DNA from: TPA_inf: Saccharomyces | Lineage: Eukaryota | NCBI GenBank assembly: GCA_000146045.2 | Contig: BK006943.2 | Coordinates: 192,001 to 256,000, forward strand | Direction of reading: 5' to 3' | Length of the DNA: 64,000 nucleotides | Part shown: piece by piece, positions 2,874-28,016 of the stretch | How the letters are laid out: each line of letters starts with the position of its first letter | How positions within the stretch are numbered: position 1 is the first letter of the stretch | The notes under the pieces: model-generated | Seen by the model: the letters and a program-made list of their open reading frames with translations, nothing else | What the model was told of the DNA's origin: nothing | Databases searched by the model: none | Translations under genes and position numbers: made by a program

Positions 2874-4070
2874 TATGTGTTAGAGAGAGACGAGTTAAGT
2901 ATGTGCGACTATACTAGTATTATAATATTAAAGGAAAGTAAGGTACCGTCTATGAGGAGACTGTTAGTTGGATATCAGTAATGAGACGAAAAAGCTCGAA
3001 ATGAATGGATATATTCTTTTTGCTACTGGCAACTGTTGAATATTTAATGTTAAAACAAACTAACTGAGGTATATTCGTATCTGTATGTACACATATACTA
3101 TATACAGGAAAAGATAAGCAAGAGAGAGGATATCAACTACGAGAGCGATCGATTATATATCAAAAGCTGTCCGCTTTGCCACCCATAATCGGCGCTTAGT
3201 TTCGGAGTTCAATCATAATTCTACCACCTTACACTCAACTTACTCTTTAACTCCTATAGTATAATATCGCCACTGACCCCATATTAAAAAAATTTTTTTG
3301 CTCGATCTTCTATCCTCTTTAGGTTAATTGTCGCTGTTATTGTCTAGATTTTTTCTCGGAGATGGCGCATCTATTTGCCGTCAAAAGATCCTCTCATACC
3401 ATATTAAGTAAATTGCCTCCATTTCTTTTTCCTCGGGCAGAGAAACTCGCAGGCAACTTGCTCTCGAAGTGGTCACGTGCGGGTCTAGGCCTGCATAATC
3501 GGCCCTCACAGAGGGATCCCGTTACCCATCTATGCTGAAGATTTATCATACTATTCCTCCGCTCGTTTCTTTTTTCAGTGAGGTGTGTCGTGAAAGAAAA
3601 CCCACAATTAAACTTTCAACAACCGGGCGACTAGGAAGAGAGTAGTGGGCGCGGATGACGAAGGCTAAGGTCACTTCTTCGTTTCCTTTATTGGGGTTTC
3701 CGTGTAGCCTTCCCCTGAATAGTGTGGGACGTTTTATGAGAAGCCGTAAGAAATAGGCAAATTGAGTTATGACAAGTAGACATGATGCCGCAGCCTTGCC
3801 TGACTTTACGTCTCCTTCATGAATAAGTTTTTCTATCGAGTTCTTTTCCTTTTTTCGCCTTAATTAGCTCAATTAAGCCTGTCCTCACTACTTTTCTTTT
3901 TCTTATCGGCTTTGTGCCACACCTAACCTTCGAATGCTGTTTTATTCCGTTCTTACATGGGATGGTAATGCCTTGGCGAGAATTTCGATTTTCAGGATAT
4001 TGTCTTGGTGGCGTCTTTTGCTGTTACTATGTGTTTAAGAGAGAGCTGTTCTACAAAGAACTTTTCATTT

Positions 4071-5312: not shown

Positions 5313-5385
5313 TGGACGAGTCCGGAATCGAACCGGAGACCTCTCCCATGCTAAGGGAGCGCGCTACCGACTACGCCACACGCCC
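5313..5385 (-). tRNA. tA(AGC)J: tRNA-Ala(AGC)
   Basis: The reverse complement reads GGGCGTGTGGCGTAGTCGGTAGCGCGCTCCCTTAGCATGGGAGAGGTCTCCGGTTCGATTCCGGACTCGTCCA. It has a cloverleaf, anticodon AGC, the G3:U70 alanine identity pair, A/B boxes and no intron. A T-tract lies downstream on the minus strand. Confidence 0.95.
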
Positions 5386-5494: not shown

Positions 5495-5544
5495 TGTTGG
5501 AATAAAAATCCACTATCGTCTATCAACTAATAGTTATATTATCA
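5495..5544 (+). repeat. First ~50 nt of a diverged delta (Ty1/Ty2-type LTR). The rest continues at 12115-12382, split by the Ty4 and solo-delta insertions.
   Basis: TGTTGGAATAAAAATCCACTATCGTCTATCAACTAATAGTTATATTATCA matches the delta 5' end (TGTTGGAATAGAAATCAACTATCATCTACTAACTAGTAT..TATATTATCA). Confidence 0.55.
5540..5544. repeat. Ty4 target-site duplication, left copy (TATCA)
   Basis: TATCA lies immediately 5' of the LTR TGTTGG. The same pentamer lies immediately 3' of the 3' LTR, at 11769-11773. Confidence 0.8.
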
Positions 5545-5915
5545 TGTTGGAACGAGAGTAATTAATAGTGACATGAGTTGCTATGGTAACAATCTAATGC
5601 TTACATCGTATATTAATGTACAACTCGTATACGTTTAAGTGTGATTGCGCCTATTGCAGAAGGAATGTTAAACGAGAAGCTCAGACAATACTGAAGCTGT
5701 GTTAAAGACCTATTAGTTGAACATGTTATGGTAGGTACATATATGAGGAATATGAGTCGTCACATCAATGTATAGTAACTACCGGAATCACTATTATATT
5801 GGTCATAATTAATATGACCAATCGGCGTGTGTTTTATATACCTCTCTTATTTAGTATAAGAAGATCAGTACTCACTTCTTCATTAATACTAATTTTTAAC
5901 CTCTAATTATCAACA
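5545..5915 (+). repeat. Ty4 5' LTR (tau), 371 bp
   Basis: Exact direct repeat of 11398-11768. Begins TGTTGG and ends CAACA. Confidence 0.95.
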
Positions 5916-7157
5916 TGGCGACCCCAGTGAGGGGTGAAACAAGAAATGTTATTGACGACAACATTTCTGCGCGGATTCAATCGAAAGTCAAAACAAATGA
6001 TACTGTCAGACAGACGCCATCATCATTAAGAAAAGTTTCTATTAAAGATGAACAGGTGAGACAATATCAAAGAAACTTAAATAGGTTTAAAACCATACTA
6101 AATGGTTTAAAGGCAGAAGAGGAAAAACTTTCTGAGGCTGATGATATTCAGATGCTAGCTGAAAAATTATTAAAACTCGGAGAAACCATTGACAAGGTTG
6201 AGAATAGGATTGTGGATCTAGTTGAAAAGATACAATTATTGGAAACAAACGAGAACAATAATATATTACATGAACATATAGATGCTACAGGGACTTACTA
6301 TTTATTCGATACGTTAACTTCAACCAACAAAAGATTCTACCCTAAGGATTGTGTTTTTGATTATAGGACTAATAATGTCGAGAACATTCCTATTCTCTTA
6401 AACAATTTTAAAAAATTCATCAAGAAATATCAATTTGATGATGTCTTTGAAAATGATATCATAGAAATCGATCCTCGTGAAAATGAAATCTTGTGCAAGA
6501 TAATCAAAGAAGGACTCGGTGAAAGTTTAGATATCATGAACACAAATACAACTGACATTTTTAGGATAATCGATGGTTTAAAAAAACAAATATAGAAGTT
6601 TGCATGGTAGAGATGTCAGAATTAGAGCCTGGGAAAAGGTTTTGGTTGATACAACATGTAGAAATTCCGCATTGTTAATGAATAAACTTCAAAAGTTGGT
6701 ACTAATGGAAAAATGGATTTTTTCTAAATGCTGCCAAGATTGTCCTAATCTAAAGGATTACCTACAAGAAGCTATCATGGGAACCTTACATGAATCCTTA
6801 AGAAATTCTGTGAAACAACGTTTGTACAACATTCCACATGACGTAGGAATTGATCACGAAGAATTTCTAATCAATACTGTTATTGAAACAGTAATTGATT
6901 TGAGCCCAATTGCAGACGATCAAATAGAAAATAGCTGCATGTATTGCAAATCTGTTTTCCATTGCTCAATTAACTGCAAAAAGAAACCAAATAGGGAACT
7001 TAGGCCTGACTCGACCAATTTCTCAAAAACCTATTATCTACAAGGTGCACAGAGACAACAACCACTTAAGTCCAGTGCAAAACGAACAAAAGTCTTGGAA
7101 CAAGACACAAAAAAGGTCGAACAAAGTGTACAACAGCAAAAAACTGGTAATTATTGA
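5915..7157 (+). CDS. Ty4 TYA (Gag). In this copy it is split into two frames (5915-6595 in frame 2 and 6582/6600-7157 in frame 0) by a frame break at an A7 run.
   Basis: A 226-aa ORF starts at the LTR-proximal ATG. A 185-aa continuation ends NRELRPDSTNF... and contains the Cys/His motif (CMYCKSVFHCSINC). The two parts match a single gag of about 414 codons if one A is removed from 6580-6586. Confidence 0.7.
5916..5933 (+). promoter_or_regulatory. Ty4 minus-strand primer-binding site, complementary to the 3' end of tRNA-Asn(GUU)
   Basis: TGGCGACCCCAGTGAGGG is the reverse complement of the tRNA-Asn 3' end (...CCCTCACTGGGGTCGCCA). It lies directly after the LTR terminal CA and overlaps the TYA start codon. 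Confidence 0.75.
7008..7014 (+). promoter_or_regulatory. Programmed +1 ribosomal frameshift heptamer CTT-AGG-C (TYA to TYB)
   Basis: CTTAGGC lies in the TYA frame (Leu-Arg), and the TYB frame (frame 1) is open across it. It is the same heptamer as the Ty1/Ty2 +1 frameshift site. Confidence 0.75.
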
Positions 7158-10100
7158 TACCGGTTCCGGAGTAAACATTACCAATGACAAAACCTTACTG
7201 CATAATTACGAAGACAGTAATCGCAGTACACGATTTTTTGGTATTGGGAAAAACAGTTCAGTGTCTGTTAAAGGGTATGGCTATATAAAAATCAAGAATG
7301 GTCACAACAATACTGACAATAAGTGTCTATTAACTTACTATGTACCGGAAGAAGAATCCACTATAATCAGCTGTTATGACTTAGCCAAGAAAACCAAAAT
7401 GGTTTTAAGTCGAAAATATACCAGATTGGGAAACAAAATCATAAAAATTAAAACCAAGATAGTTAATGGTGTCATTCACGTAAAAATGAACGAGTTAATT
7501 GAACGTCCTTCCGATGATTCAAAAATAAATGCAATAAAACCTACTTCTTCTCCTGGATTTAAACTAAATAAAAGGTCTATTACCTTGGAAGATGCTCATA
7601 AAAGAATGGGCCATACAGGAATTCAACAAATTGAAAATTCCATAAAACATAATCATTATGAAGAATCCCTTGACTTAATCAAAGAACCAAATGAATTTTG
7701 GTGTCAAACCTGTAAAATCTCTAAAGCCACGAAAAGAAATCATTATACCGGGTCTATGAATAATCATAGTACTGATCATGAACCAGGCTCATCATGGTGC
7801 ATGGATATATTTGGCCCTGTATCAAGTTCAAACGCGGACACTAAAAGGTACATGCTTATTATGGTGGATAACAACACGAGATATTGCATGACCTCCACAC
7901 ACTTCAATAAGAATGCTGAAACTATTTTAGCTCAAGTTAGAAAGAATATTCAGTACGTGGAAACACAATTTGACAGGAAAGTCAGAGAAATTAATTCAGA
8001 CAGAGGTACTGAATTCACAAATGATCAGATAGAAGAATATTTTATTTCAAAAGGAATACATCACATACTTACTTCTACACAAGATCATGCTGCTAACGGA
8101 AGAGCAGAAAGATACATAAGAACAATAATAACTGATGCAACAACACTCCTAAGACAAAGTAACTTAAGAGTAAAATTTTGGGAATACGCAGTAACTTCTG
8201 CTACCAATATAAGAAATTACCTGGAACACAAAAGTACAGGTAAACTACCATTGAAGGCAATCTCACGTCAACCTGTGACAGTGAGATTAATGTCATTCTT
8301 ACCATTTGGCGAAAAAGGAATAATTTGGAATCATAATCACAAAAAATTGAAACCATCTGGACTTCCTTCTATAATTCTATGCAAAGATCCAAATAGTTAT
8401 GGATACAAATTCTTTATACCATCCAAAAATAAAATTGTCACATCTGATAATTATACAATTCCCAACTATACAATGGACGGTAGAGTAAGAAATACTCAGA
8501 ATATTAACAAGAGTCATCAATTCAGTTCAGATAATGATGATGAAGAAGATCAAATCGAAACGGTCACAAACTTATGTGAAGCTTTGGAAAACTACGAAGA
8601 TGATAATAAACCAATTACTCGCCTGGAAGATTTGTTCACAGAGGAAGAGTTATCTCAAATAGACTCAAACGCAAAATACCCATCTCCTAGTAATAACCTA
8701 GAAGGGGACTTGGATTACGTATTTTCTGATGTTGAGGAATCTGGAGATTATGACGTTGAATCTGAACTTTCAACGACAAATAATTCAATCTCAACTGATA
8801 AAAACAAAATTTTGTCAAACAAGGATTTTAATTCAGAACTTGCATCGACTGAAATATCCATCAGTGGAATCGATAAGAAAGGATTAATAAATACAAGTCA
8901 TATTGATGAAGATAAGTATGATGAAAAAGTCCACAGAATTCCATCGATTATACAAGAGAAACTGGTAGGAAGTAAAAATACTATTAAAATCAATGACGAA
9001 AACAAAATCTCCGACAGAATTCGTAGTAAAAACATTGGGAGTATTTTAAACACTGGACTCAGTAGATGTGTAGATATCACCGATGAATCTATTACTAACA
9101 AAGATGAGTCAATGCACAACGCAAAACCCGAACTAATTCAGGAGCAGTTAAAAAAAACAAATCATGAAACTTCGTTTCCTAAAGAAGGGAGCATTGGAAC
9201 AAATGTAAAATTCCGAAATACAAACAATGAGATTTCTTTAAAAACAGGCGATACGAGTTTACCAATAAAAACTTTAGAAAGCATTAACAATCACCATAGT
9301 AATGATTATTCCACAAACAAAGTTGAAAAGTTTGAGAAGGAAAATCATCATCCGCCCCCGATTGAGGACATTGTGGATATGAGTGATCAAACTGATATGG
9401 AATCAAACTGTCAGGATGGTAATAACTTAAAAGAATTAAAAGTCACCGATAAAAATGTACCAACTGACAATGGAACAAATGTGTCACCAAGGTTGGAACA
9501 AAATATTGAAGCATCTGGATCACCAGTACAAACAGTTAATAAAAGTGCCTTCTTAAACAAAGAATTCAGTTCTTTGAACATGAAAAGAAAACGGAAAAGA
9601 CACGATAAAAACAATAGTCTAACAAGCTATGAATTAGAAAGAGATAAGAAGCGTTCAAAAAAGAATCGAGTGAAATTAATTCCAGATAATATGGAAACAG
9701 TTTCAGCACCAAAAATTCGAGCCATATATTATAATGAAGCTATTTCAAAAAATCCTGACCTCAAAGAAAAACATGAATACAAACAGGCATATCATAAAGA
9801 ATTACAGAATTTAAAAGATATGAAGGTATTTGATGTCGATGTGAAGTACAGTAGATCAGAAATCCCTGATAATTTAATAGTACCCACCAACACGATATTC
9901 ACAAAGAAAAGAAATGGGATTTATAAGGCTAGGATAGTCTGCAGAGGTGATACTCAGTCACCAGACACTTACAGTGTAATAACTACAGAATCTTTAAATC
10001 ACAATCATATTAAGATATTCTTAATGATTGCAAACAACAGAAATATGTTTATGAAGACCCTGGATATCAATCATGCATTCCTATATGCTAAATTGGAAGA

Positions 10101-11325
10101 AGAAATATACATCCCACATCCGCATGATAGGAGATGTGTAGTCAAGCTAAATAAGGCGTTATATGGTCTAAAACAGAGTCCTAAAGAATGGAATGATCAT
10201 CTAAGACAATACTTGAATGGAATTGGACTGAAAGATAACTCTTATACTCCGGGATTATACCAAACCGAGGATAAAAATCTAATGATTGCAGTCTATGTTG
10301 ATGACTGCGTAATTGCGGCAAGCAATGAACAGAGATTGGATGAATTCATAAACAAATTGAAAAGTAATTTTGAACTGAAAATTACAGGAACATTAATAGA
10401 CGATGTACTCGATACAGATATATTAGGAATGGATCTAGTATACAACAAAAGACTTGGTACTATCGATTTAACATTAAAATCATTCATAAATAGAATGGAT
10501 AAAAAATACAACGAGGAATTGAAAAAGATTAGAAAAAGTTCAATTCCGCATATGTCAACTTATAAAATAGATCCTAAGAAAGACGTACTGCAAATGTCAG
10601 AAGAAGAGTTTAGACAAGGTGTTCTAAAGCTACAACAATTACTAGGTGAACTAAACTATGTCAGACACAAATGCAGATACGACATTGAATTTGCTGTTAA
10701 GAAAGTGGCTAGACTAGTAAATTACCCACATGAAAGAGTCTTTTATATGATTTACAAAATAATCCAGTACTTGGTTCGGTATAAAGATATTGGAATACAC
10801 TATGACCGAGACTGTAATAAAGACAAAAAGGTTATTGCTATAACTGATGCATCAGTTGGATCAGAATATGATGCTCAATCAAGGATTGGAGTTATATTAT
10901 GGTACGGTATGAATATTTTTAATGTTTATTCTAACAAGAGCACAAACAGATGTGTATCATCAACAGAAGCAGAGCTTCATGCCATTTATGAAGGCTATGC
11001 AGACTCAGAAACGTTGAAGGTAACATTAAAGGAGCTAGGAGAAGGAGACAATAATGACATTGTCATGATCACTGACTCAAAGCCAGCCATTCAAGGATTA
11101 AATCGCAGCTATCAACAACCAAAAGAGAAATTCACTTGGATAAAAACTGAAATAATAAAAGAAAAAATTAAAGAGAAGAGTATAAAACTGTTAAAAATTA
11201 CCGGCAAAGGTAATATTGCTGATTTACTAACAAAACCAGTATCAGCATCTGATTTTAAAAGATTTATACAAGTATTAAAAAATAAAATAACATCACAGGA
11301 TATTTTGGCCTCAACAGACTATTGA
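7012..11325 (+). CDS. Ty4 TYB (Pol: protease, integrase, reverse transcriptase, RNase H), expressed as a TYA-TYB fusion by +1 frameshifting
   Basis: Frame-1 ORF. The track calls 7045-11325 (1426 aa). Motifs: IIDTGSG (aspartic protease), H..H..C..C integrase zinc finger plus DDE core, AVYVDDCVIAA (RT YXDD), and ITDAS..E..D RNase H. Confidence 0.9.
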   Translation, partial: RPISQKPIIYKVHRDNNHLSPVQNEQKSWNKTQKRSNKVYNSKKLVIIDTGSGVNITNDKTLLHNYEDSNRSTRFFGIGKNSSVSVKGYGYIKIKNGHNNTDNKCLLTYYVPEEESTIISCYDLAKKTKMVLSRKYTRLGNKIIKIKTKIVNGVIHVKMNELIERPSDDSKINAIKPTSSPGFKLNKRSITLEDAHKRMGHTGIQQIENSIKHNHYEESLDLIKEPNEFWCQTCKISKATKRNHYTGSMNNHSTDHEPGSSWCMDIFGPVSSSNADTKRYMLIMVDNNTRYCMTSTHFNKNAETILAQVRKNIQYVETQFDRKVREINSDRGTEFTNDQIEEYFISKGIHHILTSTQDHAANGRAERYIRTIITDATTLLRQSNLRVKFWEYAVTSATNIRNYLEHKSTGKLPLKAISRQPVTVRLMSFLPFGEKGIIWNHNHKKLKPSGLPSIILCKDPNSYGYKFFIPSKNKIVTSDNYTIPNYTMDGRVRNTQNINKSHQFSSDNDDEEDQIETVTNLCEALENYEDDNKPITRLEDLFTEEELSQIDSNAKYPSPSNNLEGDLDYVFSDVEESGDYDVESELSTTNNSISTDKNKILSNKDFNSELASTEISISGIDKKGLINTSHIDEDKYDEKVHRIPSIIQEKLVGSKNTIKINDENKISDRIRSKNIGSILNTGLSRCVDITDESITNKDESMHNAKPELIQEQLKKTNHETSFPKEGSIGTNVKFRNTNNEISLKTGDTSLPIKTLESINNHHSNDYSTNKVEKFEKENHHPPPIEDIVDMSDQTDMESNCQDGNNLKELKVTDKNVPTDNGTNVSPRLEQNIEASGSPVQTVNKSAFLNKEFSSLNMKRKRKRHDKNNSLTSYELERDKKRSKKNRVKLIPDNMETVSAPKIRAIYYNEAISKNPDLKEKHEYKQAYHKELQNLKDMKVFDVDVKYSRSEIPDNLIVPTNTIFTKKRNGIYKARIVCRGDTQSPDTYSVITTESLNHNHIKIFLMIANNRNMFMKTLDINHAFLYAKLEEEIYIPHPHDRRCVVKLNKALYGLKQSPKEWNDHLRQYLNGIGLKDNSYTPGLYQTEDKNLMIAVYVDDCVIAASNEQRLDEFINKLKSNFELKITGTLIDDVLDTDILGMDLVYNKRLGTIDLTLKSFINRMDKKYNEELKKIRKSSIPHMSTYKIDPKKDVLQMSEEEFRQGVLKLQQLLGELNYVRHKCRYDIEFAVKKVARLVNYPHERVFYMIYKIIQYLVRYKDIGIHYDRDCNKDKKVIAITDASVGSEYDAQSRIGVILWYGMNIFNVYSNKSTNRCVSSTEAELHAIYEGYADSETLKVTLKELGEGDNNDIVMITDSKPAIQGLNRSYQQPKEKFTWIKTEIIKEKIKEKSIKLLKITGKGNIADLLTKPVSASDFKRFIQVLKNKITSQDILASTDY

Positions 11326-11397: not shown

Positions 11398-11768
11398 TGT
11401 TGGAACGAGAGTAATTAATAGTGACATGAGTTGCTATGGTAACAATCTAATGCTTACATCGTATATTAATGTACAACTCGTATACGTTTAAGTGTGATTG
11501 CGCCTATTGCAGAAGGAATGTTAAACGAGAAGCTCAGACAATACTGAAGCTGTGTTAAAGACCTATTAGTTGAACATGTTATGGTAGGTACATATATGAG
11601 GAATATGAGTCGTCACATCAATGTATAGTAACTACCGGAATCACTATTATATTGGTCATAATTAATATGACCAATCGGCGTGTGTTTTATATACCTCTCT
11701 TATTTAGTATAAGAAGATCAGTACTCACTTCTTCATTAATACTAATTTTTAACCTCTAATTATCAACA
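11398..11768 (+). repeat. Ty4 3' LTR (tau), 371 bp
   Basis: Exact copy of 5545-5915. It is preceded by a purine-rich tract (AAGGGAGCA) and followed by the TATCA target-site duplication at 11769-11773. Confidence 0.95.
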
Positions 11769-11782
11769 TATCAATATATTAT

Positions 11783-12114
11783 TGAAGATTGGGTGAATTT
11801 TGAGATAATTGTTGGGATTCCATTTTTAATAAGGCAATAATATTAGGTATGTAGATATACTAGAAGTTCTCCTCCAGGATTTAGGAATCCATAAAAGGAA
11901 ATCTGCAATTCTACACAATTCTATAAATATTATTATCATCATTTTATATGTTAATATTCATTGATCCTATTACATTATCAATCCTTGCGTTTCAGCTTCC
12001 ACTAATTTAGATGACTATTTCTCATCATTTGCGTCATCTTCTAACACCGTATATGATAATATACTAGTAACGTAAATACTAGTTAGTAGATGATAGTTGA
12101 TTTTTATTCCAACA
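11783..12114 (-). repeat. Complete solo delta (Ty1 LTR, ~332 bp) in inverted orientation, with an ATTAT target-site duplication
   Basis: The reverse complement matches the delta consensus from end to end (TGTTGGAATAAAAATCAACTATCATCTACTAACTAGTATTTACGTTACTAGTATATTATCATATACGGTGTTAGAAGATGACGCAAATGATGAGAAATAGTCATCTAAATTAGTGGAAGCTGAAACGCAAGGATTGATAATGTAATAGGATCAATGAATATTAACATATAAAATGATGATAATAATATTTATAGAATTGTGTAGAATTGCAGATTTCCTTTTATGGATTCCTAAATCCTGGAGGAGAACTTCTAGTATATCTACATACCTAATATTATTGCCTTATTAAAAATGGAATCCCAACAATTATCTCAAAATTCACCCAATCTTCA). It is flanked by ATTAT at 11778-11782 and 12115-12119. Confidence 0.85.
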
Positions 12115-12734: not shown

Positions 12735-12806
12735 TCCGTGATAGTTTAATGGTCAGAATGGGCGCTTGTCGCGTGCCAGATCGGGGTTCAATTCCCCGTC
12801 GCGGAG
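12735..12806 (+). tRNA. tD(GUC)J: tRNA-Asp(GUC)
   Basis: TCCGTGATAGTTTAATGGTCAGAATGGGCGCTTGTCGCGTGCCAGATCGGGGTTCAATTCCCCGTCGCGGAG matches the classic yeast tRNA-Asp sequence, with anticodon GTC. It is followed by a T9 Pol III terminator at 12809-12817. Confidence 0.95.
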
Positions 12807-25704: not shown

Positions 25705-26856
25705 TTATAAACTGAAAAGACCAGTTTTCTTTTTACCAAAGGGGTAGACAAAGAGTGAAGAAGCAAATAGTCCCACAGAAATACCGACACAAACTTGAAT
25801 CATTGTCATACCAAATGACATTGAGGACGATGGATCGGAGGTGCTTGTCGTAATGGTTTCATTAGCATTAACAATTGTATTTGCACTTTGCAACCCAGAC
25901 AACAACGAATTTTGTGAAGCAATACCAGATGGCACTTGAACGAAGATTGCGGGAAGCATAGCTGATACCGCTAAACCTTTCCAAATTCTGGAATATAGAT
26001 TACCTAAAACACCTATGACAAATGCAGCTAAGGCGGCAGTAAACTCTGTCGAATTCGCAAAATGCTTACCGGCCCAATATGTTACGACATAACCGGTGCA
26101 AGAAATGAAGACCATAACTGGCAGTTGTGAGATGTGTGCTTGATTTAATAACGAGATACTAATGGTAAACGCTGGAACGAAGAGGAACCTGAACCACGGA
26201 GAAATTAATTGAGGACATGAAATTTCGTTAGTGGCATTGTGATACATCCATCCAAACAAAGCTGAGCCCAATGTTATGCCAAAACCCAAAAACAAAGAAT
26301 AAATAATGGCGTAGAACATACGGACCGCGCCAGCAACTAGGCTTCGACTTTGCAGTTCTAGTGCACCACACAGAATAATATAACCTGGCAGGATTAATGC
26401 CAATGAGCCTTGTGTAACTGCACCAAAGCAGATGTGAGAACGAGGGATAGAGCCAAAAGCTCTACCGCAGAAGCTAACGACAATAGATGCAGAAATTTCG
26501 AAGACGTTTGAATACATGTATGACTTTTGTGAAAGAATAAATTGTAATGACCCCACACAAAGCCCCATAAAAAATGAGATTGCCAGGTTTACCCAATCGC
26601 CACCAAAGGCATACGGAGTGACCATAGCGGAACAAAATGCATATAAAAGAACACACATCCAAGGTGGATATAGATTCGTGTCAGCCAAAATTTGATCGAG
26701 TAAAGCATTACCTTCATCGGCACCTAAGGTATCATGGACAACTCTTTTGTAAACGGCATGAACTTGATGCAGCTTCCAAAGGTTTAGACCTTGAGTACAC
26801 CTAACCAATTGAACTTCGGAAGTTCTTGTTGTTGCATCACCAAATGAAACAATCAT
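25705..26856 (-). CDS. PRM10: PRM10 (YJL108C), pheromone-regulated multi-pass membrane protein (ThrE/DUF1212-DUF3815 family, C-terminal transmembrane half)
   Basis: 383 aa from the ATG at 26856 (MIVSFGDATTRTSE..), with many hydrophobic helices. The track ORF begins at an upstream TTG (26874). Confidence 0.8.
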   Translation of the reverse strand: MIVSFGDATTRTSEVQLVRCTQGLNLWKLHQVHAVYKRVVHDTLGADEGNALLDQILADTNLYPPWMCVLLYAFCSAMVTPYAFGGDWVNLAISFFMGLCVGSLQFILSQKSYMYSNVFEISASIVVSFCGRAFGSIPRSHICFGAVTQGSLALILPGYIILCGALELQSRSLVAGAVRMFYAIIYSLFLGFGITLGSALFGWMYHNATNEISCPQLISPWFRFLFVPAFTISISLLNQAHISQLPVMVFISCTGYVVTYWAGKHFANSTEFTAALAAFVIGVLGNLYSRIWKGLAVSAMLPAIFVQVPSGIASQNSLLSGLQSANTIVNANETITTSTSDPSSSMSFGMTMIQVCVGISVGLFASSLFVYPFGKKKTGLFSL

Positions 26857-28016
26857 ACAACCTGGAAGATACAAAACTGACCATCTATTTCAAGGACTCT
26901 AGAAGTCATAACCATATATTCTTCAAGCCTATGCGTCGGAGCACCATACATCATAAGAGCTCTACACATGCGTAGGATGAACCGGTGTCTTTGTAAAATG
27001 TCTGCAATGTGAACCGTAATTTTCGCTTCAGTTTTTAGTCTTTTCTTCAGTCTAGGCATTCTGCCTTTTTTAGCCTTGCCTTTTAAATTTTGTAATCTGC
27101 TACGCTTGGCAACTGGTACGTCTTTGTTTCCAGCAGTAGAAGAAATACCTTCATCATCTGTTGTTACAGCTTGTGAATCTGAAAAGATTGAGCTTGAATT
27201 TTGATCTTCATTTTGGTAAAGTTTCAATAATGACCCTAGTACTCCACTTTTCACTTGAGATGGAGGGGGTACGTATGTGGAGGTTTCAATAAACCCTTCG
27301 TTATCGTCGGATGAATTGTTTTCTGCATAATCATCAAAATGATCCACTGCAGGAGCCAGAAATGAATTTTTTGAACTTGAGCCTAACGTTTCGCCATCCG
27401 ACGTACAATTTACGTCACCTTCTAATTTGAGAGCCTCCAGTTTTTCTTTATCGTCGCCCTCATGAACGTCTACGATTTTAGACGCATCAGCTAGATCGGA
27501 TAAGGGAATTTCTTCATTACGGTTATTTTTTTCTATATCATTCTTCCCATTTTCATTTTCTGAAGGTATTGGTGCCAAGCCAGGGACCAAACCCCCTTGA
27601 TTTCCAGTCAGGTTATTTATTATCTTCTTGATGAACGTCTCATCGTCTCCATCCTTACCATTGTTCCTTAAATGTGTGAAAGAAACTTTAGGCTTCCTCT
27701 TGTGGCGAGCAGGCCTATCTTCTTCATCTTGTCCATCTGTGCCCTTAGAATTATCGCTGGTTTCTGTAGATCTTGAAGACAAATCATTTTCTAGAGCATC
27801 CGTATCAGCAGTGAATCTTACATTTTTGTTATCATTATTAGAAATACCTAGATCACTGATGCTTTTACCACTTAAATTGCCTTTTTTGCTCTCGGCTGAA
27901 TTGGAAGTGCGATGGTCACTACTATCTTCAAGATTCACTCCCGCTTGACTTTGCTCGGAGCTTCCCACCCGAAAATCTGACACAGGAGTGGTTGGTTTTT
28001 CATTTCTACCGTCCAT
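26853..28016 (-). CDS. YJL107C, hydrophilic Ser/Asp-rich protein whose C-terminus begins the ThrE/DUF1212 domain. It is apparently the N-terminal half of a gene split from PRM10.
   Basis: 387 aa. It ends ..YGAPTHRLEEYMVMTSRVLEIDGQFCIFQVV*. Its TGA stop (26853-26855) overlaps the PRM10 ATG by 2 nt, and the two ORFs are in different frames. Confidence 0.75.
   Translation of the reverse strand: MDGRNEKPTTPVSDFRVGSSEQSQAGVNLEDSSDHRTSNSAESKKGNLSGKSISDLGISNNDNKNVRFTADTDALENDLSSRSTETSDNSKGTDGQDEEDRPARHKRKPKVSFTHLRNNGKDGDDETFIKKIINNLTGNQGGLVPGLAPIPSENENGKNDIEKNNRNEEIPLSDLADASKIVDVHEGDDKEKLEALKLEGDVNCTSDGETLGSSSKNSFLAPAVDHFDDYAENNSSDDNEGFIETSTYVPPPSQVKSGVLGSLLKLYQNEDQNSSSIFSDSQAVTTDDEGISSTAGNKDVPVAKRSRLQNLKGKAKKGRMPRLKKRLKTEAKITVHIADILQRHRFILRMCRALMMYGAPTHRLEEYMVMTSRVLEIDGQFCIFQVV

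Follow-up and report, generated by a model that had tools for sequence, protein, structure and literature searches.

An extra adenine in the gag gene of YJLWTy4-1, a Ty4 retrotransposon on chromosome X of Saccharomyces cerevisiae S288C

The stretch of DNA analysed here (64 kb, referred to as the window) contains YJLWTy4-1, a Ty4 retrotransposon of S. cerevisiae S288C chromosome X that comprises YJL114W and YJL113W. The identity of the element and of the chromosome follows from two of its products, of 226 and 1548 aa, which match NP_012422.2 and NP_012421.2 exactly. The element has an ASF1-family gene upstream, and all the features of it described below are on the forward (+) strand. It is bounded by two long terminal repeats (LTRs, tau) of 371 nt (TGTTGG...CAACA) located at 5545..5915 (5' LTR) and 11398..11768 (3' LTR), the same length that is quoted for the Ty4 LTR (371 bp; PMC7175516). 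The two LTRs are identical over their full length (371/371) and are flanked by a target-site duplication, TATCA, with the left copy at 5540..5544 and the right copy, directly 3' of the 3' LTR, at 11769..11773. Since the LTRs have not diverged and the duplication is intact, the insertion is, by all appearances of its sequence, a young one.

The final base of the 5' LTR (5915) doubles as the A of the gag ATG. Immediately 3' of it, at 5916-5933, lies TGGCGACCCCAGTGAGGG, in the position expected of the primer-binding site; that of Ty4 adjoins the 5' LTR and is complementary to the 3' end of tRNA-Asn. No tRNA-Asn gene was found in the 64-kb window with which this stretch could be compared. A tRNA-Ala gene (5313-5385) precedes the 5' LTR by ~160 bp, i.e., an RNA polymerase III gene is near the insertion. 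The Ty4 element is nested among pieces of Ty1-type delta LTRs (window positions 5496-5544 and ~11815-12110). A stretch of ~49 nt from the 5' end of a delta (TGTTGGAATAAAAATCC..., 5496-5544) directly adjoins the target duplication on the 5' side, another delta, inverted, is found just 3' of YJLWTy4-1, and the whole nest is bounded by the tRNA-Ala gene on one side and a tRNA-Asp gene (12735-12806) on the other.

An open pol frame extends from 7003 to 11325 (ORF listing, 7045-11325, together with the fusion of the frames). It begins with a protease-like barrel, followed by the integrase core, an SH3-like domain and the RVT_2 reverse transcriptase, which is the copia order (integrase before reverse transcriptase); the Pfam matches on the pol ORF are PF22936 (residues 36-116), PF00665 (245-346), PF25597 (417-471) and PF07727 (945-1156). 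An exact look-up of the 1399-aa pol product of the window returned no record. The heptamer CTT-AGG-C (6999..7005), read in the gag frame, is by its sequence a Ty-type +1 ribosomal frameshift site leading from gag to pol; pol is predicted to be read in the +1 frame relative to gag, with the heptamer inside the gag-pol overlap. YJLWTy4-1 thus shows what characterises the Ty4 family (Ty1/copia-type, Pseudoviridae): paired LTRs, a target-site duplication, identity with sequences named as Ty4, the pol order, the CTT-AGG-C heptamer and a Pol III gene nearby.

The gag gene of this element is split. The frame that opens at the ATG at 5915 (5915..6595) ends in ..IIDGLKKQI at a TAG stop (6593-6595) and encodes only 226 aa. 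The rest of gag is found in the +1 frame (6582..7157; KNKYRSLHGRDV...GNY*), which opens after a TAA, has a stop ending at 7157 and includes both the Cys/His motif or knuckle (CMYCKSVFHCSINC, 6936-6977) and the CTT-AGG-C heptamer. The change of frame takes place at a homopolymer of seven A (A7, 6580..6586, in the context GGTTT AAAAAAA CAAATATAG), one A above the Ty4 consensus, T3A6, with A6 in 18 other copies. When one A is deleted, the two parts become one continuous ORF (413 aa plus stop) that runs through ..IIDGLKNKYRSLHGRDV.., and the fusion of the frames at CTT-AGG-C then gives a stop-free Gag-Pol of 1802 aa. This layout (the 226-aa frame with its TAG, the remaining gag with its motif and shift site in the +1 frame from 6582, and the A-run whose shortening by one A joins both parts into about 414 codons) is that of the original prediction, and both direct reading and the ORF listing bear it out. 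Being determined by the sequence itself, the split raises no question of chance.

The current annotation of the reference contains the same split. An exact-sequence look-up identified the 226-aa product as the 'gag protein' of S288C (NP_012422.2 / DAA08687.2), and the RefSeq 'gag-pol fusion protein' (NP_012421.2, 1548 aa) is an exact match to the frame that starts at an internal ATG (MNKLQ..., 6678..6680) and is joined to pol at CTT-AGG-C. The annotation of YJLWTy4-1 under these two accessions and the element in the window are the same object, matching residue for residue, with no difference in sequence. Counted from the gag start there are 19 ATGs upstream of the one at 6678, and translation of the 1548-aa product would have to begin at the twentieth; this product is a conceptual translation and unlikely to be made. 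The UniProt entries P47023 (Transposon Ty4-J Gag polyprotein, 414 aa) and P47024 (Gag-Pol, 1803 aa) still correspond to the DNA as it stood before 2011, in which the frameshift was hidden, and those who use them work with a pre-2011 conceptual protein that has ~17 wrong residues. In the description given by SGD, YJL114W belongs to a mutant retrotransposon.

In order to place the A7 run among other Ty4 elements, we have used 18 other copies with an uninterrupted gag, all of which read T3A6 and contain a contiguous 413-aa gag. Ten of them were selected through gag and read T3A6 by construction (they were chosen for carrying the repaired 413-aa Gag), and eight were selected through pol; the pol-selected copies that span the junction, chosen regardless of gag, read T3-A6-C-A3 in 8/8 cases and have gag contiguous. 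The repaired 413-aa Gag was found verbatim in strain EC1118 (CAY80410.1, 'EC1118_1I12_ty4_gagp') and on 167 contigs. Over 5.4-6.0 kb aligned at 99.8-99.9% identity, the extra A is the sole indel of YJLWTy4-1 with respect to other Ty4 copies. A scan of metagenome contigs for the junction, in which the length of the run was allowed to vary, recovered one contig only, which has A6 and was already in the set. The intact elements (CAY80410.1, L002-L004, L013, L014, L034-L040) resemble YJLWTy4-1 in their LTRs, the CTT-AGG-C heptamer and pol, at 99.8-99.9% nucleotide identity, but differ from it in having T3A6, a contiguous 413-aa gag and a 1802-aa Gag-Pol, and in lying at other genomic sites.

The same holds outside S. 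cerevisiae. A homology search with the repaired Gag retrieved Gag homologues of S. kudriavzevii, S. eubayanus and others that cover 98-100% of it (S. cerevisiae matches were absent from it, the representative of the 90% cluster being a pol fragment). In an alignment, five Gag homologues from three other Saccharomyces species cross the junction in a single frame, with L222, K223, K225 and Y226 invariant. A gag that is naturally in two parts, or that is joined by a programmed shift, is excluded by these observations, given that the 18 Ty4 copies and the five homologues of other species are all single-frame. The alignment of this TYA with other Ty4 copies had been proposed as a test along with the original prediction, and among the 18 other copies with uninterrupted gag it gives A6 throughout and no shared bipartite gag with A7. 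Because all 18 copies have T3A6 and the Gags of other species read through, A7 in YJLWTy4-1 is, as far as sequence comparison can tell, an inactivating insertion.

The reliability of the seventh A has to be judged in the light of the history of this small region of the reference. The 1996 Sanger sequence derived from FY1679 cosmids, and release R64 later changed exactly one transposon genome-wide, YJLWTy4-1 ('Deletion 198588 A; Deletion 198632 G', in Table S1 of Engel et al., 2014, PMC3962479, where the listed coordinates shift with each indel). According to this table and to our reconstruction of P47023.1, the bases removed were sequencing errors in what is now an AAA run at 6588..6590 (AAAA before 2011) and a GGG run at 6631..6633 (GGGG before 2011), and the 44-nt spacing of the two deletions fits these runs. 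When the pre-2011 sequence is reconstructed as A7 + C + AAAA ... GGGG, gag encodes 414 aa identical to P47023.1 / CAA89408.1 and the Gag-Pol fusion 1803 aa identical to P47024.3. A reconstruction with A8 + GGGG was also considered and rejected (the resulting 414-aa protein is absent from the protein collection). Since P47023.1 and P47024.3 are reproduced exactly only with A7 plus the two extra bases, the 1996 Sanger sequence must already have had A7. On this reconstruction, A7 and the two spurious bases added up to +3 and so masked the lesion before 2011, giving an ORF of full length but locally garbled, with KKQNIEVCMVEMSELEPGE where KNKYRSLHGRDVRIRAWE belongs (~17 out-of-frame residues).

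The doubt about the quality of the sequence that was raised with the original prediction was reasonable, because both spurious bases of 1996, which were genuine errors of the reference, fell within this one 52-nt stretch. The extra A could, along these lines, be a third error of the same kind that was never corrected, the true run being A6 and the copy intact. The 2011 update (strain AB972) dropped one A and one G and kept A7 (PMC3962479), and it relied on reads of 36 nt, with transposable elements explicitly outside the systematic analysis, so that the retention of A7 is weaker evidence than dedicated resequencing. Other bases of the reference make uncorrected errors in this element plausible as well. 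The A at position 7170 of the window is absent from all 28 other Ty4 sequences that cover this position, and the A at 8219, responsible for C768Y (Gag-Pol numbering), from all 19 that cover it. When the pol of YJLWTy4-1 was compared with that of seven copies, C768Y and H872D were the two residue differences. The sequences that lack the two A's include the same locus in another assembly (L001, see below) and two of the A7-bearing contigs (L027 and L028), which share with the element in the window the marker G at 8530. Because transposable elements were not systematically resequenced, 7170 and 8219 are possibly sequencing errors left over from 1996.

The seventh A itself is a different case. It is needed to obtain the 1996 protein, and the curators edited bases 2 and 45 nt away and left it untouched. 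The corresponding locus of a chromosome X from another assembly (L001, GCA_010356925.1) has it too and is not a reference copy, since two other bases differ from the window, and a third NCBI assembly encodes the same 226-aa product (KAG2514783.1). Finally, a look-up of the second-frame ORF (6600-7157) retrieved contigs from three Logan read-set assemblies (L026-L028) that carry TTT+A7, with the caveat that De Bruijn contigs from three near-identical copies can be chimeric. With A7 required by the 1996 protein, kept by the curation of 2011 and seen in L001 and L026-L028, we judge the run to be real and consider a sequencing error very unlikely. Of the two options left side by side in the original prediction, therefore, the inactivating 1-nt insertion is upheld by the T3A6 of the other copies, and the sequencing or assembly error loses its ground to the A7 of independent data. 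One of the Logan contigs, L026, has A7 on a background of SNPs (7788A, 8097T, 8118C, 8530C) unlike the chromosome X haplotype; chimeric assembly of the short reads, an exchange between copies by recombination or a separate origin of A7 could account for this.

Taken together, the observations make us confident that YJLWTy4-1 is a young element with a real +1 insertion (A6 to A7) in gag, non-autonomous but with pol still open. Ribosomes that start at the gag AUG would halt at the UAG at 6593-6595 after 226 codons, ~400 nt before CTT-AGG-C, and because this stop precedes the shift site neither a full Gag (413 aa, with its Cys/His knuckle) nor Gag-Pol (1802 aa) would be made from the mRNA of the element. 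Measured against an autonomous copy, it lacks an uninterrupted gag up to the shift site and has an uninterrupted pol. The additional A would have arisen by slippage of the primer strand on the A-run, either during the reverse transcription that made YJLWTy4-1 or later, during chromosomal replication. Since pol and both LTRs are intact, its RNA could be mobilised in trans, and would remain movable if the proteins of intact Ty4 copies act on it.

As regards the family, the other two Ty4 copies of S288C (on chromosomes VIII and XVI) are, according to their annotation, probably intact. Three full-length Ty4 elements have been counted in the reference (Carr et al., 2012), and the lesion explains why one of them cannot be autonomous. 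The original prediction had gone further, suggesting that the integrity of this copy matters for whether the family is mobile at all. This was overstated, as intact copies are found at several other sites in other strains: one (L013) adjoins V-ATPase/RabGAP/carrier and multicopper-oxidase genes, with the carrier-protein gene on one side and the multicopper-oxidase gene on the other, another (L014) lies between aspartyl protease and mannosyltransferase genes, a third (L002) adjoins an IF-2B-family gene and a fourth (L003) is near a diphthamide-synthesis gene. The different sites occupied by intact copies in other strains indicate that intact Ty4 has moved recently in S. cerevisiae, and the coding capacity of the family is, for the same reason, independent of YJLWTy4-1. 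Some other Ty4 contigs have pol lesions of their own; in both L026 and L028 pol is called in two pieces, 701 + 710 aa (locus positions ~3308-3345), and another contig (L009) has a stop at Lys1781 (Gag-Pol residue 1781), near the end of pol.

A second null allele was found at the same junction. In seven contigs (L024, L025, L029-L033) the last T of the T3 run is replaced by A (T6579A, position 6579, giving TT+A7), which turns Leu222 from TTA into a TAA stop and leaves an upstream product of 221 aa. Among the ten split-gag contigs listed, out of 17, seven have TT+A7 and three (L026-L028) TTT+A7. The TT+A7 contigs come from different samples and assemblers and have several combinations of SNPs. 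Split-gag contigs are a minority, 17 vs at least 167 with the exact intact Gag, figures that count contigs and not strains. Like YJLWTy4-1, the TT+A7 copies have gag truncated at the same homopolymer and an A-run lengthened to seven, but here by a substitution that shortens the product to 221 aa and leaves the downstream frame unchanged, whereas YJLWTy4-1 has an insertion.

Reverse transcriptases (those of HIV-1 and Ty1 among them) slip at homopolymers, a process known as 'dislocation', with a +1 insertion if the strands do not realign and the conversion of the neighbouring base into the base of the run if they do. By analogy, the two outcomes expected would be exactly the two alleles seen at the Ty4 junction, and the T-to-A nonsense allele may have come from the same slippage followed by realignment, although slippage during chromosomal replication would give the same products. 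A rather improbable extension of this idea is that the T3A6 junction is a recurrent slippage hotspot that generates gag-null copies (A7 and the Leu222 stop), and that these are kept, and perhaps spread on several SNP backgrounds, since intact copies supply Gag in trans. If this hotspot reading were true, a measurable share of the Ty4 copies of S. cerevisiae would be non-autonomous passengers. The hint of a mutational hotspot given by the second allele may be of use in asking how often intact Ty copies carry defective ones along.

The existence of the nonsense allele also bears on two functional interpretations of the split. One is that the copy is leaky: RNA polymerase or the ribosome would slip on A7, so that AAA AAA C becomes AAA AAC, at a frequency sufficient for useful amounts of Gag and Gag-Pol. 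By codon reading, if tRNA-Lys slipped by +1 on AAA-AAA-C, the exact wild-type peptide GLKNKYRS would indeed result. However, no stimulatory element is evident around the run and the next codon is a common one, and all the other copies and related species are single-frame, with nothing to suggest that a shift site has been selected for. In yeast, sliding or transcriptional slippage generally becomes efficient only with ~10 or more A, and A7 is well below this. Moreover, a nonsense codon at the same place is beyond rescue by slippage, which points to plain loss of function. Leakiness of any use to the element is accordingly something that we find hardly credible. Rescue by a ribosomal shift of -1 on T-TTA-AAA is rejected, since such a shift leads into the wrong frame and only +1 or -2 would restore gag.

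The other interpretation takes the truncation itself as functional. The 226-aa N-terminal Gag, or a C-terminal piece translated from an internal AUG, could act as a trans-dominant inhibitor of Ty4 in the manner of Ty1 p22. The finding, in multiple data sets, of two distinct alleles with Gag cut short at codons 222-226 would fit this idea, and truncated Gags are known restriction factors of Ty1 (PMC8458377, PMC10951436, PMC7055915). The Ty1 p22/p18 copy-number-control factor and the domesticated Ty1' Gag restriction factor are, like the product discussed here, truncated Gags from a retrotransposon copy. They are nonetheless C-terminal fragments with demonstrated inhibition (p22, the product of an internal transcript, corresponds to the C-terminal half of Gag), whereas the translated Ty4 piece is the N-terminal half. 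No Pfam domain was found, the copies with split gag are the small minority already described (17 contigs vs at least 167 with intact gag), and a mutational hotspot alone would give the same pattern. A dampening of Ty4 activity by the N-terminal Gag fragment itself is less likely than the hotspot reading, and the trans-dominant inhibitor, in either of its forms, appears to us extremely improbable. The preferred reading is still that of a young copy inactivated by one inserted A.

The lesion as such is already known, since the RefSeq annotation encodes it and the paper of 2014 on the update of the reference records it. Among the papers found that name YJL114W, YJL113W or other Ty4 ORFs, none treats the lesion in its title or abstract, and two papers on Ty4 and frameshifting do not mention it. 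What is mildly new is how the lesion came to be masked until 2011, along with a further null allele at the junction and the two possible residual errors of the reference; the importance of all this beyond bookkeeping is small. Elsewhere in the window, on the minus strand, there are two ORFs in the same orientation (25705-26874 and 26853-28016, of 389 and 387 aa) that overlap by 22 nt, and this pair could be another gene split by a change of frame in this strain.
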